Below are positions 673 to 20,453 of a stretch of DNA of 24,586 bases, piece after piece. The stretch covers positions 1-24,586 of the IMG/VR virus record IMGVR_UViG_3300017965_000073. One strand, written 5' to 3'. Both the position numbers and the translations under genes were made by a program. Every line of letters starts with the position of its first letter. The first letter of the stretch is position 1. Source of the DNA: a virus. Taxonomy: Duplodnaviria > Caudoviricetes. Below the pieces are notes generated by a model. That model saw nothing but the letters and a program-made list of their open reading frames with translations, searched no databases and was not told where the DNA came from.

Positions 673-783
673 TAGCAGTTGAGAGGCACGCCAGGGTGGT
701 GCGCAGATTGGGGTTACTTCCCCTCACCCGAGAAAACACCTCAGTCATCCCGGAACTCATCCTGACTGGCCTCTCAGCTGCTA
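673..783 (+). ncRNA. Y RNA-like module 1 (divergent, long terminal stem)
   Basis: 673-687 pairs with 769-783 (15 bp, one G-U); GGTGCGCAG at 698; TTACTTC at 714-720; GATTGGGGT/ACCTCAGTC stem; variant 3' motif CGGAACTC. Confidence 0.7.
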
Positions 784-795
784 ACCCGGAATACT

Positions 796-907
796 GGAAC
801 GGTGCGCAGGCAAGGGTTACTTCGTTGGTTTGAACAACAGGGAGGCTTGCCTCCCCGTTGGAGGGTTTCGACCACCCTCAGGACCTTAGCCGACTGGATC
901 TCGTTCC
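796..907 (+). ncRNA. Y RNA-like module 2 (three-hairpin payload)
   Basis: GGAACG/CGTTCC closing stem; GGTGCGCAG at 801; TTACTTC at 817; TGGATCTCG at 895; internal hairpins GGGAGG-CTTG-CCTCCC and GAGGG..CCCTC. Confidence 0.8.
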
Positions 908-923
908 TACAACTAAGGCGTAA

Positions 924-1054
924 TGAAAGCGGTGCGTAGGTAGGAGTTACTTCCCTTTGGAGGACGTGGTCACGGGTTCGAATCCCGTCCGGCTTGCCGG
1001 TAGCTCAGTGGTTAGAGCGCGTACGTTACTTCAACCGCCTGGATCTCGCTTTCA
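924..1054 (+). ncRNA. yrlA: YrlA-type Y RNA with circularly permuted tRNA-like domain (module 3)
   Basis: TGAAAGCG/CGCTTTCA stem; T arm ACGGG-TTCGAAT-CCCGT (972-988) precedes a loop-closed acceptor-like stem CCGG-CTTG-CCGG (989-1000) and D arm TAGCTC-AGTGGTTA-GAGC (1001-1018); upstream of a Ro gene. Confidence 0.88.
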
Positions 1055-1077
1055 CAACTCACTCAACTCGGGAAAAC

Positions 1078-1143
1078 TGAAGACGGTGCGTCAGTCGGGG
1101 TTACTTCGCTGAAAGGTCCTCGACGCCCTGGATCTCGTCTTCA
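1078..1143 (+). ncRNA. Minimal Y RNA-like module 4 (66 nt)
   Basis: TGAAGACG/CGTCTTCA stem; GGTGCG at 1085; GTCGGGG/CCTCGAC stem; TTACTTC at 1101; only a GAAA mini-hairpin as payload; TGGATCTCG at 1129. Confidence 0.8.
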
Positions 1144-1158
1144 CAACTAGACGCATAC

Positions 1159-1279
1159 GGGAGCGGTGCGTAGTTCGGAGTTACTTCGTCACCGACACCG
1201 AAAGGTGTTACCGCCGGCAGACAACCGGCACCTCGGTGAAAACCGGGTTTGGAACTTCGGACGATTGGATCTCGCTTCC
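1159..1279 (+). ncRNA. Y RNA-like module 5 (three-hairpin payload)
   Basis: GGGAGCG/CGCTTCC stem; GGTGCGTAG at 1165; TTACTTC at 1181; hairpins ACACC-GAAA-GGTGT, GCCGG..CCGGC and CTCGGT-GAAA-ACCGGG; TGGATCTCG at 1266. Confidence 0.8.
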
Positions 1280-1303
1280 TAAACCACTTGGGAGGGTGGT
1301 ACA

Positions 1304-3004
1304 ATGGCAAAGCTGGCAAGCCTGTCAGCAAAGGCGCCGACAGCCCCGGTTACTTCTCTGTCCGAGGTGCCGGACGCGCTGACCTATGAAGGGGGCGCCG
1401 GATTCTCGCGTGACGCGAAGTCCGAACTCTTCCTTCTCGCGGTTACCAACATGGTGTCCGAGAAGACCTTCTACGAGGACGCCGGAGCCCGAGATTCCCG
1501 ATTCCGCAACCTCGTTACGCAGGTTGCTCGGGAGAATCCGGACTGGCTCGCAGCGTTCATCCCGTATCTGCGGAACACGATGAACATGCGGTCGGCCTCG
1601 ATCGTGATGGCCGCAGAGGCCGTCAAGGCACGCCTCGATGCAGGCCAGACGAAGAACCGCGACATCATCTCGTCCGCGTTGGTTCGTGCAGACGAGCCGG
1701 CGGAGATGATCGGGTACTGGATCTCGCGGTGGGGCAAGAACATCCCGAAGCCGGTTCGTCGCGGTGTTGGTGACGCTGTCAAGCGCCTCTATACCGAGCG
1801 TAACTTCCTGAAGTACGGGGGTAACGACGGCATCCGGATGGCGGACGTTCTCGAGATCGTCCACCCGGACAATCGAGGCATCTGGCAGCGGGCACTCTAC
1901 GAGTTCATCCTGCAGGATCGCCACAACCGGGCAAACCTCCAGAAGCCGATCCGGAAGTCCGGAGACAAGCTGTCGCTGGTCGATCTCGACACGCAGCTTC
2001 CGATCCTTGCTGCCCGGAAGCGTCTGGAAGCAATTCCGGTAGCGGAGCGGCTCGCAATTCAGTTGGTCGGTGTCGACGGCGTAACGTGGGAGTGGGCGTC
2101 GTCATGGTACGGCCGCAAGCTGGACGCCGACTTCTGGACTGCATTGATTCCGCAGATGGGCTATATGGCCCTTCTTCGGAACCTGCGGAACTTCGATGAT
2201 GCGAAGGTCCCCGATGACATCGCTGGCCTCGTGGCGGCGAAGCTCACCGACCCGGAAGAGGTCGCGAAGTCGCGGCAGTTCCCGCTTCGGTTCGCCGCCG
2301 CCTTCGACCAGATCAACTCACTCCGGTGGGCGTACCCCCTTGAGCAGGCACTGCAGCTGACGTTGCAGAACGTGCCTGCCTTGTCGGGTAAGACACTGAT
2401 CCTGGTGGACAACTCAACGTCGATGGATGGGACGTTGTCCGGCCGGTCGAAGATGCGCATGCGCGATGCCGCAGCCCTCTTCGGGGCTGCATTGGCATTG
2501 CGTGCCGAAGAGGCTACCCTGGTAGCATACGCAAACGAGGGGATCCAGATCCCGGTTCGTAGCGCCCAGGCGGTGCAGCTGCTCCGCAAGGCGGTCTCCA
2601 GCGCGACCAGCGGTGGAACAGAGACCATGCAAGTCCTGATGCGGTGGTACCACAGCCACGATCGGGTTATTATCCTCACGGACGAGCAGGCCTTCAACGT
2701 GTCCGGCACGACGTACACCGGTGCGTGGGGTGGATATCGCATCGGCGAGATCCGCGAGGTACCGGATCAGGTGTCCGGTATCACGGCTCCGATCTACACG
2801 TTCAACCTTGCCGGGTACGCGAAGGGGCATCTCCCGTCCGGATCCGCCAACCGTTACACCTTCGGTGGGCTTACCGACGCAGGTTTCACTGCGATCGACA
2901 TGCTCGAGAAGGGGCGGGACGTCAACTGGGCGTTTCTTAAGTCGTCCACCCCGGTGACGACGGAATTCGAAGCCTCGACTGAAGTCGACATCCAGGAGGA
3001 GTAG
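1304..3004 (+). CDS. rsr: Ro60/Rsr TROVE-domain RNA-binding protein with C-terminal vWA domain
   Basis: 566 aa; TROVE motifs (TYEGGAGF, KTFYE, MGYMALLRNLRNF, SRQFPLRF); vWA MIDAS DNSTS...GGT...LTDEQ; SD GGAGG upstream. Confidence 0.95.
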   Translation: MAKLASLSAKAPTAPVTSLSEVPDALTYEGGAGFSRDAKSELFLLAVTNMVSEKTFYEDAGARDSRFRNLVTQVARENPDWLAAFIPYLRNTMNMRSASIVMAAEAVKARLDAGQTKNRDIISSALVRADEPAEMIGYWISRWGKNIPKPVRRGVGDAVKRLYTERNFLKYGGNDGIRMADVLEIVHPDNRGIWQRALYEFILQDRHNRANLQKPIRKSGDKLSLVDLDTQLPILAARKRLEAIPVAERLAIQLVGVDGVTWEWASSWYGRKLDADFWTALIPQMGYMALLRNLRNFDDAKVPDDIAGLVAAKLTDPEEVAKSRQFPLRFAAAFDQINSLRWAYPLEQALQLTLQNVPALSGKTLILVDNSTSMDGTLSGRSKMRMRDAAALFGAALALRAEEATLVAYANEGIQIPVRSAQAVQLLRKAVSSATSGGTETMQVLMRWYHSHDRVIILTDEQAFNVSGTTYTGAWGGYRIGEIREVPDQVSGITAPIYTFNLAGYAKGHLPSGSANRYTFGGLTDAGFTAIDMLEKGRDVNWAFLKSSTPVTTEFEASTEVDIQEE

Positions 3005-3160: not shown

Positions 3161-4363
3161 GTGCCAGGCGAACTCTTCGATAGACCGGCGACCGCCGTTG
3201 AGGACAAAGGGGATCACGTGGTCCTCGAAGTCCACAACGGCGATCGTGTCACCTATCGAAGGTGCCGACGTAAGTTCATGTTCCAGTCGCGCCTACGTGA
3301 GAACCTCATTGCGATCTCAACCCCGCGGGGCCCGTTGTGGCTCGGGTCGGGGTTTCACTTTGCACTGGAGGACTTCCACGGACATAACAGATTCGGGGAC
3401 CCGCGTCGGGCTTTCGATGCCTACGTGGAGGCCCATCCTCCGGAGGAACTTCCCGAAGACGTAGACAAGTTGGTCGTTTTGGGCAACGGCATGCTTGAGT
3501 ACTACGTGGACTTGTGGCTTCCCCGACGCCAAGCGACTATGCCGCAGACGCTTTGGGTGAACGGGGAGCCACAGGTCGAAGTTCACGTCCAGATTCCCGT
3601 TACCGAACTCATCCAGCCCTGGCTTCTGGACATCCTTCAGGAGAAGCACGGTAAGCGGGTCGAAGTCGTCATCTTCCAGACCTTCGACAAGATCGAGATC
3701 GACCAGGAAGGGCGGATCTGGGGCGTCGACTACAAGACCGCAAAGCAGATGACCCCCGTCAACGATCTGCAGCGGCTTCCGCAGGGCAAGCAGTACTACT
3801 GGGGCGGGCGCTGGTTCTACGGGGATGCGTTCGAAGGGATGACGTGGCAACAACACCTGAAGTCAGTTCCTGAACCCCCTGAACTCCTGAAGTCCGGAGA
3901 CTTCTCAGTCAACAAGTCCCAACACACCACATACTCAATGTACCGAAAGGCCCTGATAGACCAGTTCGGTAAGGTCCCGAAGGGTTACGTCGAGATCCTG
4001 AACATCCTTGCGTCCCGAGAGAACGATGAGGGCGATAGGTACATCAGGCGCGATACGCTTCGGTGGAGTCCGATGCAGGGGTTTTCGGAAGAGGAAGCCC
4101 TTACAGCCGAGCTGCATGAGATGCTCGACCCGAATCTTCCGATCTACCCGAACCCCACAAGGGACTGTAACTGGGATTGCCCATTCTCCCCGATCTCACA
4201 GGCGATGGACGACGGGTCAGACTTCGATTACCTGCTCGAGACCGAGTTCATGCGGTACCAAGGTTACCGAGATGACTGGCGAGCCGCAATTGCATGGCCC
4301 GCAGGAACCGAACCTTCGTTGTCCCCAACCTCGGTTTCGTCTGCCCATGGAGTGCCCGCGTAA
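3161..4363 (+). CDS. Cas4/RecB-like PD-(D/E)xK exonuclease
   Basis: N-terminal RRCRRKF, GSGFHFALE helix, catalytic FD...VDYKT, Q..QYY, C-terminal CNWDCPF. Confidence 0.85.
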   Translation: MPGELFDRPATAVEDKGDHVVLEVHNGDRVTYRRCRRKFMFQSRLRENLIAISTPRGPLWLGSGFHFALEDFHGHNRFGDPRRAFDAYVEAHPPEELPEDVDKLVVLGNGMLEYYVDLWLPRRQATMPQTLWVNGEPQVEVHVQIPVTELIQPWLLDILQEKHGKRVEVVIFQTFDKIEIDQEGRIWGVDYKTAKQMTPVNDLQRLPQGKQYYWGGRWFYGDAFEGMTWQQHLKSVPEPPELLKSGDFSVNKSQHTTYSMYRKALIDQFGKVPKGYVEILNILASRENDEGDRYIRRDTLRWSPMQGFSEEEALTAELHEMLDPNLPIYPNPTRDCNWDCPFSPISQAMDDGSDFDYLLETEFMRYQGYRDDWRAAIAWPAGTEPSLSPTSVSSAHGVPA

Positions 4364-4755
4364 TGGGTCTTTCGCCCTACTCGTTTGAGGCCCACGAAGG
4401 GGTTAGTGGGGCCACCGATATCGGCATTGGCGTCGTTCACGGTATGCTCCATGCAGTCACGGGTTCTCTGTGGGTGCAGATCCAACGCGAACGCCGCGAC
4501 GGTCCGAAGTGGTGTGAAGCCCTCCGTGGCGGCAGGCTTCGGACACCTCCTGTACGACTTATCCCCGACGACTTCTGCCACGTCTGCTTCCATCCCGGTC
4601 ACTCAGAAGGTCCCTGTGCGGCAGAGGCAACGGAATACCGCGATCCCGCTATGGGGGGTAATCCGGATGGCCCTATCGTGCGGTGCGGCTGCATCGAATA
4701 CGTTGACCGCGAGGCGCGGAATAACATCCCGGTGGTGCTGACGAATGTCCCTTGA
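4363..4755 (+). CDS. Hypothetical protein with Cys/His cluster (CHVCFHPGH...C...CGC)
   Basis: ATG 4363 overlaps the TAA of the exonuclease (TAATG); in frame with ORF 4294..4755. Confidence 0.65.
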   Translation: MGLSPYSFEAHEGVSGATDIGIGVVHGMLHAVTGSLWVQIQRERRDGPKWCEALRGGRLRTPPVRLIPDDFCHVCFHPGHSEGPCAAEATEYRDPAMGGNPDGPIVRCGCIEYVDREARNNIPVVLTNVP

Positions 4756-5248
4756 GTCTCGCTTTTGGTCTAAGGTAGATATGAACGGCCCCATGGTCTC
4801 CGAGGAGCTCGGAAACTGTTGGGTTTGGAAGGGATCTCGTACCAGAAACGGGTACGGTCAGATCTTCGTCCGGCGAAACCCTGCAACAGGGAAACGCCTC
4901 GTTCGTGGTGCACACATCATCGCCATGGAGCTCGACGGTCAGTACGTCGAGAAGGGGATGGAGCCGGATCACATGTGCCGGAATCGGCTCTGTGTCCGGG
5001 TATCCCATCTCGAGCTCATTACCCACAAGGAAAACGCCCAACGGCGGACTCCGCCGAAGTGTAAGCGCGGTCATCCCTACGAGGGGAACTACGTGCTAAA
5101 CGGAGGTGGGAATAGAACCTGTAAGACCTGTAAGTACGAGCGGGAGCAGCGGCTCATCAAGAAGGCCGCAGCTCGCATCCGCCACGATCGCGCACTGCGG
5201 GCAGCCCTAGCGGCACCGACTCCGCAGGCGACAGGAGTACTGCACTAA
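4745..5248 (+). CDS. HNH homing endonuclease (HNH_3-like)
   Basis: RFWSKV...CWVWKG...GYG, AH, DHMCRNRLCV..HLE..THKEN, followed by a CKRGH...CKTC zinc finger. Confidence 0.9.
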   Translation: MSLESRFWSKVDMNGPMVSEELGNCWVWKGSRTRNGYGQIFVRRNPATGKRLVRGAHIIAMELDGQYVEKGMEPDHMCRNRLCVRVSHLELITHKENAQRRTPPKCKRGHPYEGNYVLNGGGNRTCKTCKYEREQRLIKKAAARIRHDRALRAALAAPTPQATGVLH

Positions 5249-6379
5249 ATGACCTTTCCAAGGCCGACGGCGTCTACGCCAGCGCCTTCGCGTGTCACAC
5301 AACCCGGTGTGGCTGCTACGGCAGCCAGCACAGCGGCACCCTCACCGATCTTCCGCATCACCCACCCAGCAATCGGCGGTACGGGACAGTACCTGAATCT
5401 CCTCGTCTACGGCGAGTACGGTTCGGGTAAGACAGTCCTCGCCGGTACAGCCGACGACGTGCCCGAGATGAAGAACGTCCTCTACATCGATGCGGAGGCG
5501 GGTAAGACTGCCCTCACCGATCGTCCGAACCTGGACGTCGTGACCATCAACACGTTCAAGCAGCTGGCACGGGTCTACGAGTTCCTCCGCCTTCACTGTC
5601 GCCTGCGCGACGACGGCTCTCCTGAGGCCCTGAGGCGGATGGCCGAGATCGAGATGCAGCTGAAGGGGCTTGAAGCCCCGCCCGAGAAGCCGACCATCTA
5701 CAGGACGGTCGTTGTCGACTCGTTGACCGAAGTTCAGACGTATCTCATGTACCAGCTGATGGGCGTCGACCCGAACAAGGTCGCCCTGGATGCCGAACTC
5801 ACAAGCCCTGAATGGGGCGAGTGGCGGCAGTCCAGCGACACCATTCAGCTACTCGCCCGTCAGTTCCGAGACCTTCCGATGAACGTCATCATGGTCCTAT
5901 CGGAGCAGGAAGTTCAGGAGTCCGGCACCCGCATGGTGCGCAGGATCAACCTTCCGGGCAAGCTCGCATCCAGGATCCAAGGATTCTGGGACATGGTCGG
6001 TTATCTCCAGAAGGCCGTCATTCCAGGCGACCAGGGGACAACAGTTACGAGGTGGCGCCTATACCTTACGAAGGGGCAGAACTTCCAGGCGAAGCACCGC
6101 TTCCGCCGAATCGACGTTGACTTCGTCGAAGATCCGACTATCGGTAAGCTGCTTGGACTGGCCAAGCAGGAATGGGCGGCCGAAACCGCCGAAAGGACAT
6201 CTAACACCAATGCCTCAGCCTCCCCAGCAACTCCGCCGCAACCCAGCCCAGCGACCGCAGCCGCCCCAGCAGCAGTTCCAGGCCGCGCCGCCGCAGCAGG
6301 CAGCGCAGGACCAGGATCCGGACGAGCAGTCGTTCGGCCAGGAGCAGTACGCACAGGACGACCAATCGGGCGAGGATGA
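5249..6379 (+). CDS. Phage AAA-family ATPase (AAA_24/Sak4-like)
   Basis: Walker A YGEYGSGKT, IDAEAG, Walker B VVVDSLT; lies between the exonuclease and DUF669 as in phage recombination modules. Confidence 0.85.
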   Translation: MTFPRPTASTPAPSRVTQPGVAATAASTAAPSPIFRITHPAIGGTGQYLNLLVYGEYGSGKTVLAGTADDVPEMKNVLYIDAEAGKTALTDRPNLDVVTINTFKQLARVYEFLRLHCRLRDDGSPEALRRMAEIEMQLKGLEAPPEKPTIYRTVVVDSLTEVQTYLMYQLMGVDPNKVALDAELTSPEWGEWRQSSDTIQLLARQFRDLPMNVIMVLSEQEVQESGTRMVRRINLPGKLASRIQGFWDMVGYLQKAVIPGDQGTTVTRWRLYLTKGQNFQAKHRFRRIDVDFVEDPTIGKLLGLAKQEWAAETAERTSNTNASASPATPPQPSPATAAAPAAVPGRAAAAGSAGPGSGRAVVRPGAVRTGRPIGRG

Positions 6380-6821
6380 GCTGCCGGACGTCTTCAATCT
6401 CGCAGACGTCCCGGATCAGCCCGCCTTCGAGGCCATCCCGGCAGGGCGCTACAACGCGACCATCGACAGCGTCGAGTACGGCCGTTCGCAGTCGTCCGGC
6501 GACCCGATGCTCACGTTCTTCCTCCGTGTCCACGTCGAGGGGCAGGAGGGGACGCGTGACGTTCCGATGCGTCTGTACAACTCCTTCGGGGAGCGGTCGA
6601 TCAGTCGGACGAAGCGGCAGCTCGAGCAGCTCCTTCCCGGCCACGACTTCTCGAACTTCCAGCCGAACGAGGCAGATGGTCTGCTCGCTGGCGTCGAGGT
6701 GATCGCCCAGGTCCGGGTCCGGAGCAACCCGCCCAACCACCAGTACCCCGGGAAGCAGAACAACATCCAGGCTCTGAGCCTGCCGGCAGCCGGCGAAGGC
6801 CGGGACGGCTTCCTCAGCTAG
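6210..6821 (+). CDS. DUF669-like single-stranded DNA-binding protein with Gln-rich N-terminus
   Basis: FEAIPAGRYNATIDSVEYGRSQSSGDPML motif; SD GAAAGGA at 6191 before ATG 6210; overlaps the ATPase by 170 nt. Confidence 0.75.
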   Translation: MPQPPQQLRRNPAQRPQPPQQQFQAAPPQQAAQDQDPDEQSFGQEQYAQDDQSGEDELPDVFNLADVPDQPAFEAIPAGRYNATIDSVEYGRSQSSGDPMLTFFLRVHVEGQEGTRDVPMRLYNSFGERSISRTKRQLEQLLPGHDFSNFQPNEADGLLAGVEVIAQVRVRSNPPNHQYPGKQNNIQALSLPAAGEGRDGFLS

Positions 6822-6830
6822 TACCAGCAC

Positions 6831-6941
6831 GGGAGCGTAGCTCAGAGTAGAGCATCAACCGCAACGGCATCGGATGAGGTACCTCTAAGATGCCGCCGGA
6901 GACTGTTGAAGGTCGAGTGTTAACGCCACTCCGCTCCCGCC
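6831..6941 (+). ncRNA. tRNA-like RNA with a 45-nt insertion replacing the anticodon loop and degenerate D/T loops
   Basis: GGGAGCG/CGCTCCC acceptor stem, TA, GCTC/GAGC D stem, TCAAC/GTTGA anticodon stem, AGGTC variable loop, GAGTG/CACTC T stem; T loop TTAACGC, no D-loop GG, no encoded CCA. Confidence 0.75.
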
Positions 6942-6955
6942 TTACCACACAAACG

Positions 6956-7387
6956 GGTCGTAGCTCGGGTTACCGGATTTGGAGGTCTTCCTAGCCGATG
7001 TGGGACGCCTGGATAAGCCCCGCAAGAGGTGAAAGCCAGATTTACGGTCGTCCGAAGTCGGGCCCATCTACGGTCAGCAGGATGACACCCCTTTCATTGG
7101 GTGAACAGTGCCGAGGCCTGATCAACCTCAGCTGGCGGCTCCCGGTAACCAATCATGGGGATACTCCGGAGAGGAACCGACGTTTGTTAGTACCATTTAG
7201 TCCGACGTGTGTAGAGCACGTAGGACACAGGGTGGGTCCTGAATCTAGGGCACAGATCGGCGTTTGGATGGACAAGTGTCGGGGAAGTGTTCGTAGCAGG
7301 GCAGTCGGACCGCTCCCACGGTCCGTCATTCTGGGCAGTGGCGCTGACGATCGTTCGAGTTGGACGACCTCTCCGGAGTCCCCACCA
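6956..7387 (+). ncRNA. Large putative structured RNA(s) of unknown family ending in ACCA
   Basis: Long-range helices 6968-6976/7142-7150, 7157-7174/7368-7383 and 6956-6967/7356-7369; several local hairpins; no convincing coding signal. Confidence 0.55.
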
Positions 7388-7405
7388 TATTCGGGAGGAG
7401 AAGCA

Positions 7406-7675
7406 ATGAATCTCGTTCGGTTGGGTCACTACTACACACCTCAGGGTGAGGGCGAGAAGGGTTCATGCCAGACGGCGTTGGTGTGCGGCCACGACGAGTA
7501 CGGCGGAGCAGCTCCAGAGACCGTCAACGTTACGGTCTGGAACCACCGCGGCGAGCCGATCGGTAATCGAGAGAACGTCCCGGTGATGACGCTCGAGCAG
7601 ATCCACGCCCCCAAGCCAGGCGAGGAGAATCGCGCCAGCTATCACCTGTCGTCCGAATGCCCCTGGCACCGATAG
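7406..7675 (+). CDS. Hypothetical phage protein (89 aa)
   Basis: SD GGAGGAG at 7394-7400 before ATG 7406; 3' part of ORF 6998..7675. Confidence 0.75.
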   Translation: MNLVRLGHYYTPQGEGEKGSCQTALVCGHDEYGGAAPETVNVTVWNHRGEPIGNRENVPVMTLEQIHAPKPGEENRASYHLSSECPWHR

Positions 7676-7683
7676 GAGCCCCC

Positions 7684-8163
7684 ATGAAGATCGTCACCCT
7701 CCTCTCCGGCGGAATGGATTCCGCCACCTTGGCATACTGGGCTAAGTTCAGGGCCCCCGCAGATGGTAACGAAGCGGAGCTCATCTGCCTCTCGTTCGAT
7801 TACGGGCAGCGGCACATTAAGGAACTCGAGGCCGCAAAGAACATCGCGGGGATTCTCAACGCCACCCACGACGTCATCCGCCTTCGGGTCGACAACACCT
7901 TCATCGACAAGGGCTGGGAAGCCCAGCACATCTTCAAGGACGGTAAGTCCCCCAAGATTGCCCCACTCGGGTCGATTCTCGATTCGGCTCTGACTGGTCA
8001 CGGCGAGATCCCTGAAGGGCATTACGCCGACGAGTCGATGAAGGCAACCGTCGTCCCGAACCGTAACGCGATCATGCTCAGCATCGCATACGGCATCGCA
8101 GTGGCGAAGGGAGCAGACCTGGTCCTCTTCGGAGCGCACGCCGGAGACCATGCGATCTACCCT
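7684..8163 (+). CDS. queC: 7-cyano-7-deazaguanine synthase QueC, exon 1
   Basis: SGGMDS PP-loop, FDYGQRH, VPNRNAIMLS; breaks at YP of the conserved YPDCRPEF. Confidence 0.93.
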
Positions 8164-8758
8164 AAGCCACACTGAGTTGGGGTAGTAAAACCATTCCTGA
8201 TCAATTGGGAAAGGCCACTGTGCAACAGGCCAACCCACAGCAAGCAGAACTCGCCTACGCGGCCGGGTACTTTGATGGTGAGGGAGCCCTTCACCTTCAG
8301 GTGCAACGCAGAAACGGTCGTGTACACCAGAAGTGCCTCAACGTCACCGTGAACAGCTCGGACAGGGACACGTTGCTTTGGCTCGCGTCCCTGTTTGGTG
8401 GGAGCGTATTGCTCTACCAGAACCGTAGCCCATTGACACGGAAGCGGATGTACAACTGGAAACTGAGCGGCAGTGCCACTCGGAACTTCCTCGAACTCAT
8501 CCTGCCCCACTTGCGGTATAAGAAGGAATACGCAGCCTTCTGTATCGCGGCATGGGATTTCAGGACGGACACCGAGAGGTTTGAAGAGGCATGTCGAACA
8601 GGTAAGCAGCGGTGGGGACGTGCAGCTGCAGAGACTGAGTGGAATGGCGCCGGAAACGGTGATGCGACAGTCCGATCTGAAGGGACGGTTCAACCTTCAG
8701 AGGTAGCAGAAATGACTACCCGCTCATGATGGTCATCGTGAGTCTAAGTAACAGATTG
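8164..8758 (+). mobile_element. Group I self-splicing intron (595 nt) in queC
   Basis: Exon ends in U and intron ends in G; P1 CTACCCT/GGGGTAG(8179-8185); P3 CCATTCC(8191)/GGAATGG(8641); P7 GACTG(8633)/CAGTC(8668); P8 and P9 hairpins; removal restores YPDCRPEF in frame. Confidence 0.93.
8220..8729 (+). CDS. Intron-encoded single-motif LAGLIDADG homing endonuclease
   Basis: LAYAAGYFDGEG motif, ILPHLRYKKE; probable start GTG 8220 after GGAAAGG (alternative TTG 8205). Confidence 0.88.
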   Translation: MQQANPQQAELAYAAGYFDGEGALHLQVQRRNGRVHQKCLNVTVNSSDRDTLLWLASLFGGSVLLYQNRSPLTRKRMYNWKLSGSATRNFLELILPHLRYKKEYAAFCIAAWDFRTDTERFEEACRTGKQRWGRAAAETEWNGAGNGDATVRSEGTVQPSEVAEMTTRS

Positions 8759-9067
8759 GACTGCCGCCCGGAGTTCGTGATGGCCCTCGACTTCGCCCTC
8801 CGAACCGGAAACCAGTGGGACGCCACCACTAACGTCCCCGCGATTATGGGTCCGTTCCTCGACAAGACCAAGACAGACATTGCCCGACTCGGTTCGGAAC
8901 TGGATGTTCCCTTCTCCCTTACCTGGTCTTGCTACAAGGGGGGCGAGAACCACTGCGGAGTCTGCGGAACGTGCACGGAACGCATCGAAGCCTTCCGCGA
9001 CGCAGGCCTGGACGATCTGACCGTGTACGGCGAAGGCAAGGCAGTCGAGGCCGTATCCAGTGAGTAG
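8759..9067 (+). CDS. queC: QueC exon 2
   Basis: DCRPEF, KTDIARLG, TWSCY..CGVCGTC zinc site; spliced product 262 aa. Confidence 0.93.
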   Translation, partial: DCRPEFVMALDFALRTGNQWDATTNVPAIMGPFLDKTKTDIARLGSELDVPFSLTWSCYKGGENHCGVCGTCTERIEAFRDAGLDDLTVYGEGKAVEAVSSE

Positions 9068-9380
9068 CTGGTGTGTCACCCACTCTACCGACACGTGTAC
9101 TCACGGACGACACTACAACGATGCTGTTCCTGCCAAGCTCCCTCCTTCCGTTCGGCGGGACGAGGAGGAGGTCATCGTAGAGGTTACCTACAGGGGCGTA
9201 AGGTACACGGCCAAAGGGCAGCCGACGACTGTTACTGTCGACAACCGCACGCGTGAAACTACCGGACGATTCGACAGTTGGCGGTCGTATGAACTGACAG
9301 GTAAGAAGACGTTCACCCTCGTAATCGAGGACGCAGACATTGTCGTCGAAACCCAGCTACCAAAAAGGATCGAGGCGTGA
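9060..9380 (+). CDS. Hypothetical protein
   Basis: ORF overlapping the queC stop and the next start (GTGA). Confidence 0.6.
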   Translation: MSSWCVTHSTDTCTHGRHYNDAVPAKLPPSVRRDEEEVIVEVTYRGVRYTAKGQPTTVTVDNRTRETTGRFDSWRSYELTGKKTFTLVIEDADIVVETQLPKRIEA

Positions 9381-9880
9381 CGACAACAAACCGGCCCTCT
9401 GGTATCTGCGCGGATTCCCTTACGCAGATCCAGGCCGACTGCCACCGCATCGCTCGGGAGCACGGGTGGTGGACGACACCTGAGGACAAGAGCGTCCCCG
9501 TCAAGCTCGCCCTGATCCATTCCGAGGTCAGCGAAGCCCTCGAGGAGTACCGCGACGCCCACCCTGCAGACGACCTCGCCAAGATCCGGTACGAGTTCAA
9601 GGCGACGGACAGGGTCCCGAAGGACGCCGTCATCCGCAAGGCGTTCGGTAAGATGTACGCACAGATCGGCGATGGTCCGTCATTCGAGTTCGACCAGACC
9701 ACCGCATACGATCTGGGCTACGATGTGAAGCCGATCGGGTTCGCGATCGAACTGGCCGATGCGATGATCCGCATTATGGACCTGGCAGGACACCTCGGTA
9801 TCGACCTGACTGCGGCCATTACCGAGAAGATGGCGTACAACGAAACACGGCCACTGCGTCACGGGGGAAAGACGATATGA
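9377..9880 (+). CDS. MazG-like nucleotide pyrophosphohydrolase
   Basis: LALIHSEVSEALEEYR ... ELADAMIRIMDL ... EKMAYNETR.HGGK. Confidence 0.85.
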   Translation: MTTTNRPSGICADSLTQIQADCHRIAREHGWWTTPEDKSVPVKLALIHSEVSEALEEYRDAHPADDLAKIRYEFKATDRVPKDAVIRKAFGKMYAQIGDGPSFEFDQTTAYDLGYDVKPIGFAIELADAMIRIMDLAGHLGIDLTAAITEKMAYNETRPLRHGGKTI

Positions 9881-10134
9881 GGGCAACGTTCGTAGTGGTC
9901 CTCGATACCGGTCAACGAGTCGTGTACGACGGTGAGATCGTCGGGTTCGATCTCCGTCAGCAGCATGAGGAGGCTGGGACACCACAGGCCCACGACGACT
10001 GGGCCCCGCGTCTCCCGACCGGCAAGTACAAGGTAACGTTCCTAACAACAGGCGAAACGCCGATGCCTGTAGTCATTCACGAAGACGCCTTCAAGCCACA
10101 GCCACTCCCGCTTCCCCAAGCCCAGGAGGTCTAA
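9877..10134 (+). CDS. Hypothetical protein
   Basis: ATGA overlap with the MazG-like stop. Confidence 0.6.
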   Translation: MRATFVVVLDTGQRVVYDGEIVGFDLRQQHEEAGTPQAHDDWAPRLPTGKYKVTFLTTGETPMPVVIHEDAFKPQPLPLPQAQEV

Positions 10135-10137
10135 GCA

Positions 10138-10512
10138 GTGTTCCGGGCACACGTCGAGGAAGAGTTCGAGGCGGCACACGCCAATGGGCCCGAGGGGCAC
10201 AAGTGCCGCACGATGCACGGCCACACGTGGTTGGCGGAGGTGGAGTTCGAGTACCCGGAAAGCATGCTTGACGAGAATGGGTGGGGACCGGACTTCGGGG
10301 CGATCAAGGCCATTATCAAGCCCCTCGACCACAACGAGCTGAACTCCCACTTCGCGGGACGGTTCCCACCGTCGGCCGAGAACCTCGCCAAGTGGCTGTG
10401 GAACGAAGCCGCATCAGTGGTCGGACTGACGAGAGGACGGGCGCAGAACTTGGTTGTGCGCATCCACGAAGGTGGTGGCAACTTCGTCGAGTACCGGGAC
10501 GAGATGCGATGA
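10138..10512 (+). CDS. queD: 6-carboxy-5,6,7,8-tetrahydropterin synthase QueD
   Basis: FEAAH..C..MHGHTW, DFG.IK, LDH..LN, PSAENLA; SD GGAGG. Confidence 0.93.
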   Translation: MFRAHVEEEFEAAHANGPEGHKCRTMHGHTWLAEVEFEYPESMLDENGWGPDFGAIKAIIKPLDHNELNSHFAGRFPPSAENLAKWLWNEAASVVGLTRGRAQNLVVRIHEGGGNFVEYRDEMR

Positions 10513-11327
10513 CTGAGGAATCGGTTGCGGTAACGGAGGAGCCACAAGTTAGTCCGCTCGGGCCGTCTCCTGAACGCCGACTCATGGTCATCGAGATATT
10601 CGGCCCGACGGTTCAGGGCGAGGGGGCACTCGCCGGAAGGATAACCCACTTCATTCGACTTGGCGCGTGCGATTACCGGTGCGGGTGGTGTGACTCGGAT
10701 CATGCGGTAATCCCGGCGAAGGTCCGTGAGAACGGGAAGCGGATGACCACGGGCGAGATCGTCGAGGCGCTCGCCAAACTCAAGGGCCGCCCCGAGTGGT
10801 TGACAATCTCTGGTGGGAATCCTGCCCTACAAGAGTGTGGCGAACTTGTCGAGGCCGCACACGCCCTGAACTTCAAGGTGGCGGTTGAGACTCAGGGCTC
10901 CGTGTGGAAGGACTGGCTTGCACAGGTCGATCAGCTGACCGTGTCACCGAAACCGCCGTCCTCAAACATGGATTCCAAGGAACATCGCCTTAACCTCGCG
11001 TCCTTCTTCGAGCGAGAACAACTCACCCTGGGGCGCCCAATAGGTGCTTCAACGTGTATCAAGGTTCCGGTCTTCGACGAGAAGGACTACGAGTGGGCAC
11101 GACACGTCCACCAGCGTTGGGCACGGTATCCGTTCTTCTTCAGCGTGGTCACTCGGATGGGTGGCCTTTACGGCGACTTCGACGGCGGAAAGGTGGATAC
11201 GAAGGATGACGTTATCAAGCGGTACCGGTGGCTCGTCGAACGGGCCGTCGAAGACCCCGACTTCGGAGACGTCGCCCTCTTCCCCCAGATCCACGTCCTC
11301 CTTTGGCAGCACGAAAGGCAACGGTGA
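10509..11327 (+). CDS. queE: 7-carboxy-7-deazaguanine synthase QueE (radical SAM)
   Basis: EIFGPTVQGEG, CDYRCGWCDS (CxxxCxxC), ISGGNP, VETQGS, SPKPPSS, PQIH; ATG 10509 overlaps the queD stop. Confidence 0.93.
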   Translation: MTEESVAVTEEPQVSPLGPSPERRLMVIEIFGPTVQGEGALAGRITHFIRLGACDYRCGWCDSDHAVIPAKVRENGKRMTTGEIVEALAKLKGRPEWLTISGGNPALQECGELVEAAHALNFKVAVETQGSVWKDWLAQVDQLTVSPKPPSSNMDSKEHRLNLASFFEREQLTLGRPIGASTCIKVPVFDEKDYEWARHVHQRWARYPFFFSVVTRMGGLYGDFDGGKVDTKDDVIKRYRWLVERAVEDPDFGDVALFPQIHVLLWQHERQR

Positions 11328-12018
11328 TGACGGAGGAGAAGCCGAAGAGGGTTCGGTCCCGAAAGAAGTCACCATCAACCTCCCCGACGGAGACGACTGG
11401 TTCGAACTCCTCGACCAGTCAACCGACGACCCCCAGGCAGACGTCGACGCGTCGATCGACAGGCGGCTCCGCGAAGTCCTCCGCCTTATCGGGGTCAACG
11501 CGAGCGGCGAAAACTTCGTCGACACCCCCGCCCGATTCCGCAAGCTCCTCCAGCACTACCGCCAAGGTAACCCCACCGACCTGGGCGCCATCCTCAAGGC
11601 CGGATTCGAAGAGGGATCCGGAGGAGACAAGGGTCTTGTTGTCCAGACGAACATCGCCTTCCGGGGCCTATGTGCTCACCATCTCCAGCCCTTCATCGGG
11701 AAGGCCGCCGTCGGGTACATTCCACGCAACCGTGTGGTCGGACTCTCAAAACTTACGCGTCTTGTTCAAGCCGCCGGAGTCCTTACTCCGTCACTTCAGG
11801 AGCACATTACAAACCTGGTGGTTGACACGCTCCAGGATACCCTTCAGCCAACAGCTTCCGGATGTATCACCGTGGCAACTCACGGTTGCATGTCTGCTCG
11901 GGGCGTACTTGCTCCGGAGACGGAGACGATCGTCTCAGCACTGAGGGGTGGGTTCCTGATGAACCCGATCGCGCGCCAGGAGTTCATGTCGGTATGGCAG
12001 ACGACGTACAGAAGGTAG
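11327..12018 (+). CDS. folE: GTP cyclohydrolase I FolE; coding frame lacks a nearby start, candidate -1 frameshift from ATG 11327 at CGA-AAG (11360-11365)
   Basis: DTPARF, LCAHHLQPF, VGLSKL, LQE and HGCM..RG motifs in the frame of ORF 11044..12018; the start coordinate is inferred. Confidence 0.85.
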
Positions 12019-13301: not shown

Positions 13302-13339
13302 AAGTCCTCGTCGTCTGCTCCCGTCGGTTCAATGGCTAA
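13298..13339 (+). pseudogene. 13-codon orphaned 5' end of the DJ-1/PfpI gene (MKVLVVCSRRFNG*)
   Basis: 11/13 aa identical to the N-terminus starting at 13723; coupled to the upstream stop (GTGA) and overlapping the endonuclease ATG. Confidence 0.8.
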
Positions 13340-13757
13340 GGGCATCTCCCTCCTCGAGGTTGCATGGGCGGCCAGGTTCTTTGACGGCGAGGGCCATATA
13401 CGGTTCAAGCCGCGTCCGAATCTCGGGCTGAAGTTGATTGTCGCGGTAGGTGGCGGGCATGATCCGGAGCTTCTGCTTAGATTCCAGACGGCGATCGGTA
13501 ATGTAGGACATATTCACGGTCCGTATAACCACAAGAGGGGGAAGCCGTACTACGCACTAGAGGTAACAGTCGCAAAGGATGTAATCGCCTCTATCGAACT
13601 CCTTGCGCCGTACCTAGGTACGGTAAAGCGAACACAGGCACAGGCAGCTATCGACATGTACTTCTCCGCTGGCGGAGGGGTTGGGAGTGGTCGATGGGGC
13701 TTACGGAAGGGGGTGATACCCAGTGAAGATCCTCGTGGTCTGTTCCCGCCGCTATAA
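13332..13757 (+). CDS. Free-standing single-motif LAGLIDADG endonuclease
   Basis: VAWAARFFDGEG, LAPYLGTVKRTQA; the usual Gly before FFDGEG is Arg. Confidence 0.82.
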   Translation: MAKGISLLEVAWAARFFDGEGHIRFKPRPNLGLKLIVAVGGGHDPELLLRFQTAIGNVGHIHGPYNHKRGKPYYALEVTVAKDVIASIELLAPYLGTVKRTQAQAAIDMYFSAGGGVGSGRWGLRKGVIPSEDPRGLFPPL

Positions 13758-17093: not shown

Positions 17094-17916
17094 GTTTGCT
17101 CCTGTTGCGAACCTTCCCGTTTATGAGATGCTCGCGGAGTCAGGGGATCTCGGGTCCTACCATCTCCTCATTGCCTCTGAGGTGCTTAAGGCCCCAAAGG
17201 CATGGGGGGCCTTTTGGACTCGACGTTCGTTGATCGATGGGGAGCCAGTGTTCACGATCATGGATAATGCCCTGATCGAACTTGGGTACCCGTTGGAGTC
17301 CACACAACTCGTGGCAGCTGCTGCCGCAGTTATGGCGTCGTGTATTGTTCTTCCTGACGTCCTCGGGGATGCCAAGGAAACGATGCAGCTTGCGGGCAAG
17401 GCGCTGGACGATGCGGTTCTTCGGGGATCAGGGTTCCCTTTGATGGGTGTGGTTCAGGGGACAACGCTTCTTGAGGTTGACACGACCGTTCGGTTCTACA
17501 TGAACGCCGGTGTCGAGTACCTCTCGGTTCCTCGGGTGATGACGGATATCTTTGGGTCTCGGGTCGAACTTACAAAGAGGGTTTGGGATTGGGCTTACAA
17601 GCCTATCCATCTTTTGGGGTTCTCCAACGACCTTCATGACGACATGGTTGCAGCGGTCCAAGATGGGGTTATGGGGATTGACTCCGCAGTTCCCCTCTGG
17701 GCCGGAATGGAAGATCACCGCCTCGACGAGATCACGGCGATGTCCAAGCGACCCAAGAACTACTGGGATCGCGTTCCGGTCACCGACAAGCAGTTCCTCG
17801 TCATGCTGGAGAACGTTCGGCTGACGCGGTCTCTGATCAACCAAGCCCGCATCAACCGCAAGAAGGCGACTCTCGAAACCCGGATGCAGGCCTCACGGCC
17901 TAAGGGTTCCAAGTAG
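17080..17916 (+). CDS. tRNA-guanine transglycosylase-like TIM-barrel protein, candidate DpdA-type DNA 7-deazaguanine insertase
   Basis: Motif order IMDNA..ELG, VLPDV, VVQG, IHLLG, GIDS matches the TGT/DpdA fold; same arm as folE/queDEC and next to the DNA polymerase. Confidence 0.65.
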   Translation: MTSGKFAPVANLPVYEMLAESGDLGSYHLLIASEVLKAPKAWGAFWTRRSLIDGEPVFTIMDNALIELGYPLESTQLVAAAAAVMASCIVLPDVLGDAKETMQLAGKALDDAVLRGSGFPLMGVVQGTTLLEVDTTVRFYMNAGVEYLSVPRVMTDIFGSRVELTKRVWDWAYKPIHLLGFSNDLHDDMVAAVQDGVMGIDSAVPLWAGMEDHRLDEITAMSKRPKNYWDRVPVTDKQFLVMLENVRLTRSLINQARINRKKATLETRMQASRPKGSK

Positions 17917-20453
17917 TGGCTGTTGTTAACCCGTTCCGGGCCTGCGAGGGCTGTCCCTACGGCGGACGGGTTGCTGGTACGCGCGGACCAGAGAATGCGA
18001 GGGTGTGCGTTGTCGGAGAAGCCCCCGGAGCCAACGAGCTCCGCGACGGCATCCCCTTCATCGGAGAAGCCGGACAGCTCCTTGCCAAGAGTCTTGCGCG
18101 CATCGGGGTCGATCACGAGCAGGTCTTCATCACAAACGCCCTTCGGTGCCGACCACCCGTGGGAAAGCCACCTGGACCGGGTCCAATCAACGCCTGTAAG
18201 CCTCGCCTACTTGAAGAGGTTACGCGACATCCTCGGGACCTCGTCCTGGCGCTTGGCAATACGGCACTCCGCTCGCTTACAGGCAACCTTACTGCGAAGA
18301 TCACCCAGGAACGAGGACGACTCCGAGACGTAACCCTAAACGGAACAGTCCCTACGACCATCATTAAGGTCGCCCCAACATACCATCCAGCACTCATTCT
18401 CCGATCGCCCGGAGAGATGCCGAAGTTCATGGAAGACCTGAAGTACTTCTTCAAGGTCCTCGAAGGACAAGGGCCAGTCAAAGATCCAGGCGCCGTAACG
18501 TTCACCGTACCCAAGTGGGAGGAGATTCCGGACGCGGTTGATTACCTCCTCGGGTTCGAAACGCTGGCGTGCGACATTGAGACCTCCGGGTTCAACCCCC
18601 GCTCCAATGACATCCTGTGTATCGGGGTGGCCGGGGAGAAGAACAAGGTCGTCATCTTCGAGGACGCCGTTCTACACCACCCGGATTTTGTTAGGCTGTA
18701 TTCGGACCCAGGTCCAAGATGGGTCTACTGGAACGGCAAGTTCGACGCGGCGTACATCCGACAGCTGCTCAACTCCATCGAGCAGACGCGCGTCGACGCT
18801 GGGGCGCCAAAACCTACCATCGTAGCTAGCTACCTTAGGCAGTCGTCCGGACTGCTGAAGATGGTAACGGAGAAGAGGATCCACACCCTCTACGAGGGGG
18901 ATGGCGGGATCTCTCCAGTCCGGGTGGATGAGGACGGGATGCTCATTCACTATATGCTGAGTGAGGGAAACCGCGAGCCGCATGGCTTAAAGGACGTCGC
19001 TGCGGACCTCTTAGGGGCCGATCCGGACTACGACAAGGTCGTCAAGTCGTACGCCCCGAAGATGACAGATTCGTTCGCAAGCGTTCCCCGTGACATTCTC
19101 TACCTGTACGCCGCGAAGGACGTTGACCATACCTTCCAAGCATACCAGATCCTGAAGCCGCGGCTGATGAAGCGTGGTCGGATGCACTGGGCGTACGAAA
19201 ACATCCTGATTCCAGCATCGGCTATGCTCCAGGATGTTGAACGGTACGGCGTATGGGTTCATAAGCCAACCGTGGCCAAGTTGTCGAAGGAACTCGAGGA
19301 AGAGCTCGGCAAACGTCAGGCAATCCTCCGTAAGGTGGCCGAAGACGGACTTTGGGACCCGAAGGACTACGCGAAGTGGAAAGGGCCCAGTGCGAAGGTA
19401 CCGAAGGAGTTCAATCCTGGTTCCTCGTACCAGCTCCTGTACATCTTCGAGCAGCTGGGGATAACTCCTCGTGATCCAAGAACCCGTAAGGTCTCATCCA
19501 ATGAACCGGCTCTCAAGGAGCTTCCTTCGTCCCCCTTCGTGGACGCACTCCGGGCTGCGCGTAAGGCCGCCAAGATGCTCTCCACCTATGTGGATGGCGT
19601 CTGGAATGTCATTGACCCCGGAGATGGCCGCGTTCACTCGACGTACCTGCTTCATGGCACCGCGACTGGTCGTCTATCGAGCCGGAACCCTAACATGCAG
19701 AACATCCCACGGGATGCGCGCATACGTGATATGTTCCAGGCTCCTCCTGGAAGACTTCTTGTGGAGTTGGACTACAGACAGGTTGAGCTACGCGTTCTGG
19801 CCTACCTCAGCGGAGATCCTGGCCTCCGTCGAATCTATGACGAGGGCCGAGACCTACACGACGAGGTTTCGAAGCAGCTATTTCCTGGGTGGGAGTCCTA
19901 CAAGGACACCGTCCTTGGCAAGGAGCAGCGCGTAAGGGCCAAGTTCGTAAACTTCGGCATCGCGTACGGCAGGGGCGCCGAATCCCTCGCTGCCGAGTTC
20001 AAGATGGGCCGACCAGAAGCGAAGCACATGATCGACCGGTGGTGGGCCGCATTTCCTCAGGCCCAACGGTTCGTTCAGAAGATGCGCGGGAACTCTCGTT
20101 CGGGGGTACCTATCGAAACCCCGTTTGGTCGTCGACGACGATTCTCTCTGATCACCACGTCTAACCAAAATGCCCTCGAGAACGAGGCAATCAACTTCCC
20201 GATTCAGTCCACGGCATCCGATCTGACCCTACTGTCCGCGATCGACCTGCATCCACGACTTATTCCCCTCGACGCCCATATCATCAACCTCGTCCACGAC
20301 AGCATCCTCATCGAGTGCGATCCCGGAAGTGCAGATCAGGTAGTTGCATTGGCCAGGCAGATAATGCTTGACACTCCCGCGTACTACCTTTCAACTGACT
20401 TCCCCTTCGAAGTCAGTCATGCTGTCGCAGCGTCGTGGGGTCAACTTAAGTAA
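17916..20453 (+). CDS. polA: Family A DNA polymerase with N-terminal family-4 uracil-DNA glycosylase-like domain and 3'-5' exonuclease
   Basis: UDG: CEGC, VGEAPG..E, PFIG, NALRCRPP, HPA; exonuclease: DIETSG, NGKFD, YAAKD; polymerase: TGRLSS.NPNMQNIP, DYRQVELR, RAKFVNFGIAYG, VHDS. Confidence 0.95.
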   Translation: MAVVNPFRACEGCPYGGRVAGTRGPENARVCVVGEAPGANELRDGIPFIGEAGQLLAKSLARIGVDHEQVFITNALRCRPPVGKPPGPGPINACKPRLLEEVTRHPRDLVLALGNTALRSLTGNLTAKITQERGRLRDVTLNGTVPTTIIKVAPTYHPALILRSPGEMPKFMEDLKYFFKVLEGQGPVKDPGAVTFTVPKWEEIPDAVDYLLGFETLACDIETSGFNPRSNDILCIGVAGEKNKVVIFEDAVLHHPDFVRLYSDPGPRWVYWNGKFDAAYIRQLLNSIEQTRVDAGAPKPTIVASYLRQSSGLLKMVTEKRIHTLYEGDGGISPVRVDEDGMLIHYMLSEGNREPHGLKDVAADLLGADPDYDKVVKSYAPKMTDSFASVPRDILYLYAAKDVDHTFQAYQILKPRLMKRGRMHWAYENILIPASAMLQDVERYGVWVHKPTVAKLSKELEEELGKRQAILRKVAEDGLWDPKDYAKWKGPSAKVPKEFNPGSSYQLLYIFEQLGITPRDPRTRKVSSNEPALKELPSSPFVDALRAARKAAKMLSTYVDGVWNVIDPGDGRVHSTYLLHGTATGRLSSRNPNMQNIPRDARIRDMFQAPPGRLLVELDYRQVELRVLAYLSGDPGLRRIYDEGRDLHDEVSKQLFPGWESYKDTVLGKEQRVRAKFVNFGIAYGRGAESLAAEFKMGRPEAKHMIDRWWAAFPQAQRFVQKMRGNSRSGVPIETPFGRRRRFSLITTSNQNALENEAINFPIQSTASDLTLLSAIDLHPRLIPLDAHIINLVHDSILIECDPGSADQVVALARQIMLDTPAYYLSTDFPFEVSHAVAASWGQLK

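Follow-up and report, generated by a model that had tools for sequence, protein, structure and literature searches.

The window analysed here is a whole virus contig of 24,586 bases (IMG/VR record IMGVR_UViG_3300017965_000073) from an uncultured soil phage of the Caudoviricetes, with an estimated completeness of 36%. Its genes as named by Pfam include Ro60/TROVE (1304-3004), a PD-(D/E)XK nuclease, an HNH protein, an AAA_24 ATPase, a DUF669 protein, QueC (in two parts), QueD, a radical SAM protein, FolE, ThyX and a polymerase A with a fused UDG; the best identity of the AAA protein among cultured phages is 36%. The DUF669 protein, which has a weak SSB match, ends at 6821, and the candidate RNA region sits between this SSB gene and an 89-aa ORF (7406-7675), overlapped by a public gene call with a 225-aa product (6998-7675). 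The order nuclease, AAA, SSB, queC is common to related phages; AAA relatives of 66-68% identity (P0002-P0007) and a small ORF of 61% identity (P0122) are also on record. One public DNA run, possibly the source, spans 6632-8786 with zero differences, while none of the public sequencing runs is listed as an RNA run with the region. A promoter scan of 4300-8200 returned no site, and no + strand terminator was found over the same span. The features of the junction are as follows.

6831-6939, + strand: tRNA-like RNA lacking an anticodon, with full acceptor, D and T arms; 45 nt replace the anticodon loop (z -3.42)
6955-6967, + strand: 5' tail (A), complementary to A' (7356-7369), resembling a tRNA 5' start and the phage Y-RNA 5' motif
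6968-7150, + strand: non-coding segment of ~180 nt closed by the perfect 9-bp helix B/B' (6968-6976 / 7142-7150), a possible second RNA or spacer (z -1.25)
7151-7156, + strand: short leader AATCAT, with a predicted RNase P site at A(-2)U(-1)/G(+1) (determinants from the available part of PMC10731613)
7157-7387, + strand: predicted 231-nt branched-rod non-coding RNA, from G7157 to an encoded ACCA (fold z -5.43, with strand bias)
7157-7174, + strand: 5' strand of the terminal helix (C), with a 2-nt bulge (pair probabilities 0.92-1.0, one pair 0.57)
7200-7226, + strand: predicted hairpin a, at the first three-way junction
7236-7302, + strand: predicted long apical hairpin b, whose internal loops are rich in purines (z -2.8 on +, +0.5 on -)
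7306-7325, + strand: predicted hairpin c, of 7 bp with a 6-nt loop
7368-7387, + strand: 3' strand of the terminal helix (C', 7368-7383), then a discriminator-like A and CCA
7393-7675, + strand: Shine-Dalgarno site (7393-7400) and 89-aa ORF (7406-7675) right behind ACCA, the flanking gene (3 homologs)

The tRNA-like neighbour and the two halves of the region

A preliminary description of this DNA had placed a tRNA-like gene beside the region, and a cloverleaf is indeed found at 6831-6939. A scan with its D-arm motif returned 14 loci, two of which, L129 and L135, are built in the same way. The copy in L129, a distant phage, has a 46-nt insert, an identical variable loop and an odd T loop that is almost the same, and because all 21 stem pairs are kept between the two, 12 of them through compensatory changes on both sides, 6831-6939 is, judged from these sequence changes, a selected RNA. 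It can be grouped with L129:894-1003, L133 and L127 in a phage tRNA-like RNA family with the D loop AGAGTA and the T loop TYAACG, in which U-A may take the place of the usual G19-C56 elbow pair and two members carry a 45-46-nt insert for the anticodon loop. Behind the tRNA-like unit of L129, at L129:1005-1100, two copies of GGTAAGTAC lie in short hairpins.

The strings on which the preliminary description had built its RNA all occur where it had put them, i.e., A at 6956-6967, A' at 7356-7369, B at 6968-6976, B' at 7142-7150, C at 7157-7174, C' at 7368-7383 and ACCA at 7384-7387. The pairing of C with C' ahead of ACCA is above chance: the helix comprises 16 Watson-Crick pairs interrupted by a single 2-nt bulge, RCCA (ACCA, 7384-7387) follows directly, and a helix as long with RCCA was reached in none of 1,000 dinucleotide shuffles of 6939-7405, the best of which gave 11 pairs. 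Long-range helices alone are not rare: related loci totalling 2.27 Mb contain 242 perfect ones of at least 11 bp, and RCCA stands loosely nearby in 18 cases. The fold of 7155-7390 (z -5.43) was reached by 0 of 200 shuffles, and the 3' element gives z -5.5 on the + strand versus -2.1 on the - strand; without the end helix, the inner part (7183-7352) gives z -4.8 on + (0/60 shuffles) and -1.4 on -. This asymmetry would be the pattern expected from selection on one RNA strand. The fold predicted for 7157-7387 contains two three-way junctions and 48 GC, 24 AU and 15 GU pairs (15/87 being G-U), and the hairpins CGGACCG/CGGTCCG and ACGTG/CACGT, which had been singled out earlier, have high pair probability in the fold of this 3' half, whereas the third, CACCC/GGGTG, falls in the fold of the non-significant half. 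A coarse tiling of folds (12 shuffles per tile) places 7157-7387 third among 105, below two tiles inside ORFs. Going by these folding models, 7157-7387 on the + strand is a strong RNA-gene candidate and very probably a real RNA gene, with sharp predicted ends (5' 7157, 3' 7387).

In the 5' half, the fold of 6950-7156 has a z of -1.25 (24/200 shuffles as good) and the inside of B/B' one of -0.2. Helix B/B', also part of the earlier proposal, is at chance level, a perfect inverted repeat of at least 9 bp being present in 290 of 1,000 shuffles. So is the interleaving helix A/A', whose duplex was equalled in 68 of the 500 shuffles made from the 3' half; once opening costs are included, 119 of 300 tails with shuffled sequence and 96 of 293 random 13-mers bind equally well. 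Because A/A' is at chance level and the fold of the 5' half is not significant (z -1.25), the single ~430-nt RNA, pseudoknotted or in two pieces, that had been put forward is unsupported; what survives of the proposed novel structured RNA or RNAs is 7157-7387, structured and with tRNA-type ends, and not the joined 430-nt form. Energy alone is no ground to dismiss the 5' half, since a conserved spacer RNA with a clear motif common to the related loci L049 and L079 likewise has z values of just -1.5 and -1.4. The stretch of ~200 nt that separates the tRNA-like unit from the 231-nt RNA may be a spacer or a third RNA.

Comparison with known families and related loci

The Rfam search proposed in the preliminary description matched no family in the region: over the window there was no match in the region at E<=1, and over 6820-7400 three matches were returned at E 2.9-5.5, far below their cut-offs. 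That no signature of tmRNA, RNase P or SRP had been recognised at first is borne out, with neither an ARAGORN tmRNA call nor an Rfam or SRP match. The SRP covariance models gave nothing at E<=10, with controls detected in 12 and 13 of 14 genomes. In SRP RNA, the helix 8 consensus is a symmetric loop capped by a GNRA tetraloop; AGG (7245-7247) could face AGCAG (7295-7299) in a symmetric loop of this type, but ~40 nt stand where the tetraloop belongs and the predicted fold is in another register, and SRP RNA was rejected. The 6S RNA model RF00013 gave no match at E<=10 (controls found in 7/14), and the candidate bubble is mostly paired rather than open. As a tmRNA, in one or two pieces, the region received no ARAGORN call at the default or the 90% threshold, G3 is paired with C instead of forming G3-U70, and there is no T arm ahead of the 3' strand. 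RNase P RNA has no Rfam match here, and its double T-loop AGNNA...UGNNA is absent: at 7011-7035 the sequence reads GGAUA...UGAAA, the first loop of which breaks the AGNNA...UGNNA pattern given in the available text of PMC3664808, and the forced stem costs 5.5 kcal/mol. A tRNA with giant inserts was likewise rejected, the low-threshold ARAGORN call at 7286-7374 having broken stems, and so was kinship with the L049/L079 spacer RNA (no match in the region); phage C4 RNA has no match in Rfam. The GOLLD and ROOL families, which we take to be RF02032 and RF03087, had been mentioned for their similar context near tRNA genes, and an RNA of that class is unsupported here: there is no family match, the RNA is shorter than 500 nt, and the pseudoknot is unsupported. 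They resemble 7157-7387 in being phage-encoded, near tRNA genes and of unknown function, according to the available part of PMC12286853, where many GOLLD members exceed 800 nt; 7157-7387 differs in its lack of an Rfam match, its much shorter length and the absence of a supported pseudoknot or known family members. No description of this RNA was found in the literature searched, although the catalogue of viral structured RNAs in PMC10690425 was covered in part and an entry there is possible.

By blastn, no homolog was found among cultured phages (five records at E 0.6-7, three at E 9) or plasmids (four records at E 1-5), nor did blastn and nhmmer find one in 124 loci, the majority gathered via the AAA gene. 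The 3' end motif met three loci in viral contigs, all short chance matches, and a T-loop-like motif scan met 12 loci, none homologous. The 3' two-part motif occurs in at least 119 loci (of ~170 estimated), 39 of them with shorter flanks, and none of the 119 has a comparable end helix; one such match, L160, sits in apparent coding sequence. In a DNA search of 50 viral records, eight matched over 15-19 nt only. A covariance model built on the single sequence found, among 100 sources, itself and one match at E 0.2; among 43 records it found none, and among Ro60 phage records one of eight at E 0.012, dissimilar on inspection. No prokaryote genome was reached via relatives of the AAA protein or via the tRNA-like motif. 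In sum, neither half of 6955-7387 has a homolog found by blastn, nhmmer, motif scans or the covariance model, all of which depend on shared words or close sequence and do not establish absence. The 231-nt element is an orphan, its fold having no match in Rfam 15 and no detected relative.

The closest locus spanning the junction, L014 (64% AAA identity), passes from SSB to queC with a short hairpin only, and five relatives (L049, L079, L143, L144 and L145) carry other, unrelated non-coding spacers of 100-170 nt in the same slot. For this reason the slot after SSB looks, on comparison of these sequences, like a site at which small RNA cassettes are gained and lost. In two of them, L049:9447-9580 and L079:9481-9598, the spacer behind the SSB gene holds a common RNA motif of ~120-130 nt that has an end stem and may form a loop-loop pairing, ACCGT/AYGGT; the motif has no Rfam match, and a motif scan found it in these two viral contigs only.

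Proposed processing and possible role of the 231-nt element

The explanation that accounts best for these observations, and which we favour with some reserve, is that a 231-nt rod is excised by host RNase P as a stable non-decoding RNA that binds proteins as a decoy or scaffold. The RNA would belong to a long replication/DNA-modification transcript reading through from the SSB gene, a source proposed because neither a promoter nor a + strand terminator lies nearby (4300-8200). RNase P would then cut at 6831 and at 7157 (5' end G7157), 3' trimming would halt at CCA (7387), and the same cuts would release the downstream message just ahead of the Shine-Dalgarno site at 7393. The released rod would persist as a stable RNA and act in trans as decoy or scaffold for an RNA-binding protein; this role is suggested by the 230 nt of branched structure, which far exceeds the need of a cut signal. 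Going by the sequence at the two ends, tRNA-type processing of 7157-7387 is likely, while the trans role, drawn from the modelled fold, is put forward tentatively.

For bacterial RNase P, A(-2)U(-1), G(+1) and a 3' RCCA are the optimum, and two of its substrates, pre-SRP RNA and phage C4 RNA, have a continuous helix in place of the T loop (PMC10731613, in the part available; the accessible text of PMC11143913 likewise names pre-SRP and C4 as non-tRNA substrates). The end-joining helix, the direct RCCA and A(-2)U(-1)/G(+1) are all present at the ends of 7157-7387, with cleavage itself predicted at 7157. Against an RNase P site count the 2-nt bulge after five pairs and the lack of a T loop in the terminal helix, as well as the ability of U7156, the U(-1), to pair with A7384 and lengthen the helix; pairing of the leader with RCCA slows cleavage and is an anti-determinant, as stated in the available text of PMC10731613. 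With the non-tRNA substrates, i.e., 4.5S pre-SRP and P1/P7 C4, the element shares the continuous helix, U(-1)/G(+1) and 3' RCCA (PMC10731613 and PMC11143913, both in part). It differs from them in having no SRP match at E<=10, no C4 match, and two three-way junctions.

RNA C and RNA D of phage T4 are tRNA-processed and CCA-ended, and a cassette of tRNA-ended stable RNAs like these is, by analogy, likely the best reading of the locus. The tRNA region of T4 includes genes for two small RNAs whose role is unknown (PMC3014915, PMC12685909 and PMC9697503, in the portions available), and these RNAs (rnaC/rnaD, or species 1 and 2 RNAs) are likewise adjacent small phage RNAs from a tRNA-type region, as far as the accessible text goes. 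At about 138 and 118 nt they are smaller than the 231 nt here, where instead of a tRNA cluster there is one anticodon-less tRNA-like unit only, and no cultured phage match. Phage RNAs with tRNA-type ends are a known kind, and this particular fold is without a family in Rfam 15. The 231-nt RNA would exceed T4 RNA C and D in size and in branching, it lies beneath a probably false protein call, and it accompanies an anticodon-less tRNA mimic in a phage with Ro60 and a Y-RNA array.

The same signals could also be processing marks only, the tRNA-like unit and the ACCA rod allowing host enzymes to cut a polycistronic message upstream of the small ORF and of the que genes, with an excised RNA that has no job. 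The ACCA end 5 nt ahead of the next gene's Shine-Dalgarno site fits this, as do the unrelated 100-170-nt structured spacers in the same slot of related phages and the cleavage by RNase P of hairpins in polycistronic mRNA (PMC10731613, available part). However, the inner 170 nt, at z -4.8 without the end helix, go beyond what a cut signal needs, and L014, the closest relative across the junction, has only its short hairpin between SSB and queC; this account is unlikely.

Ro60, the Y-RNA array and the remaining readings

Five Y-RNA-like repeat units (window 690-1281) precede the Ro60 gene, and one of them holds a YrlA match. They have in common GGTGCGYAG, 5-6 nt and GTTACTTC; four end in YTGGATCTC, and the outer stems differ but pair. 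The four complete units here measure 67-132 nt. Their TACTTC box is present again in 20 units before or near the Ro60 gene of six other phages, many of them without a YrlA match, and no mention of it was found in the available parts of the Y RNA literature covered. An ARAGORN tRNA-Gln call at 926-998 overlaps the YrlA match at 964-1023 within one array unit, which is probably a Y RNA and not a tRNA gene.

Given this array, 6955-7387 could be a giant two-piece Y-like RNA for the phage Ro60 (1304-3004). In such an RNA, A/A' would be the Ro60-bound stem, the crossing 16-pair helix with ACCA would lead RNase P to cut at 7157, and the two halves, held by A/A', would form a ribonucleoprotein scaffold with a pseudoknot, several times as large as the other Y-like units—a new architecture for Y RNAs, if true. 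Its start lies 3,951 nt past the end of the Ro60 gene on the same strand, which is borderline for ~4 kb, with three genes between, and A' has TTGGA, as in the 3' motif of the Y-like units. In the available portions of the sources, Y RNAs have an end-to-end stem (10.1101/312249), YrlA of M. smegmatis is cut in two by RNase P (PMC4201824), and the published 5' motif GNCGAAN0-1G (PMC4201824) is one that the 5' tail fits with one mismatch. On a matrix made from the window's own five repeat units the tail scores 9.1 bits and ranks 7 in the window; sites of at least 9.1 bits on that matrix occur 159 times in 2.88 Mb, however, and an independent matrix, made from 20 units of six other Ro60 phages (five of seven other phages' Ro60 regions plus L062), gives the site -3.3 bits (rank 438 of 49,118) versus 20-27 for the five true units. 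The tail lacks the TACTTC box, A/A' is at chance level, and Ro60 is found in none of the five relatives with RNA-like spacers in the slot, with four of the five records less than 60% complete. The tail is, moreover, equally well explained as a tRNA-like 5' start, because it has eight bases in common with the neighbour at 6831-6939. A joint descriptor of 5' and 3' Y motifs, which recovered only one of the four true units and produced 374 hits over 2.56 Mb, was given no weight.

Likeness to the bacterial Y RNAs (YrlA, RF02553, and YrlB) thus consists of the phage Ro60, the five Y-like units and the partial fit of the 5' motif, whereas the site fails on the motif matrix from other phages, RF02553 has no match in 6955-7387, the permuted tRNA-like T/D module is absent, and 430 nt compare with 67-132 nt. 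The two-piece reading is accordingly improbable, and is kept at that standing because a two-piece YrlA exists and because only the 5' strand of Y RNAs is conserved in bacteria (10.1101/312249, in part).

Less probable again, and very unlikely as such, is a miniature inverted-repeat DNA element at 7157-7383, with GGGG...CCCC ends and a 5-bp target duplication that includes ACCA. The flanks ATCAT (7152-7156) and ACCAT (7384-7388) are alike at four of five positions, and no match exists in the related phage loci. Ends in GGGG and 5-bp duplications are typical of the Tn3 family. On the other hand, the end repeats are just 16-18 bp long and carry an indel of 2 nt close to the tip, pairing within the element holds on one strand only, via G-U pairs, and the element is present in a single copy in the contig, with no plasmid or cultured-phage match.

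That 6998-7675 encodes a real 225-aa protein, with the region as its 136-codon front part and the fold incidental, is highly improbable: the public gene call, a GGAGG 12 nt upstream of ATG 6998 and a frame open from that ATG through into the small downstream ORF (as 6998-7405, in 41 of 5,000 shuffles for that frame and 323 of 5,000 for any frame) speak for it, but the coding score of 6998-7405 is -0.22 bits per codon with a GC3 of 0.56, equal to the overall GC (six other ORFs score +0.10 to +0.49), none of 53 candidates of 123-394 aa is a relative of residues 1-136 at E<=10, a strong Shine-Dalgarno site (7393-7400) stands 5 nt behind the ACCA end and ahead of 7406, the 89-aa ORF aligns with its three homologs of 79-87 aa from a shared start Met (7406) in six of six rows, and the DNA upstream of the small ORF is unrelated in five viral copies. 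Translation of 6998-7405, which the preliminary description had named as evidence that would speak against an RNA, therefore finds no backing in codon score or relatives; the extension is probably non-coding, and the 225-aa call an over-extended start of the 89-aa ORF. The segment 6968-7150 has a negative coding score in all six frames.

Elsewhere in the window (7657-12018 and 17916-20453), queC, queD, the QueE-like radical SAM gene and folE suggest a 7-deazaguanine DNA modification, and the family A polymerase carries an N-terminal uracil-DNA glycosylase domain. At ~8170-8760 an insert splits queC in two and holds a homing-endonuclease-like ORF (PHROG 5046); it is probably a group I intron, and Rfam gave nothing for it at E<=5. 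A similar insert is present in queC of the related locus L048, and a second ORF of the same PHROG 5046 homing-endonuclease-like family lies at 13332-13757 of the window.
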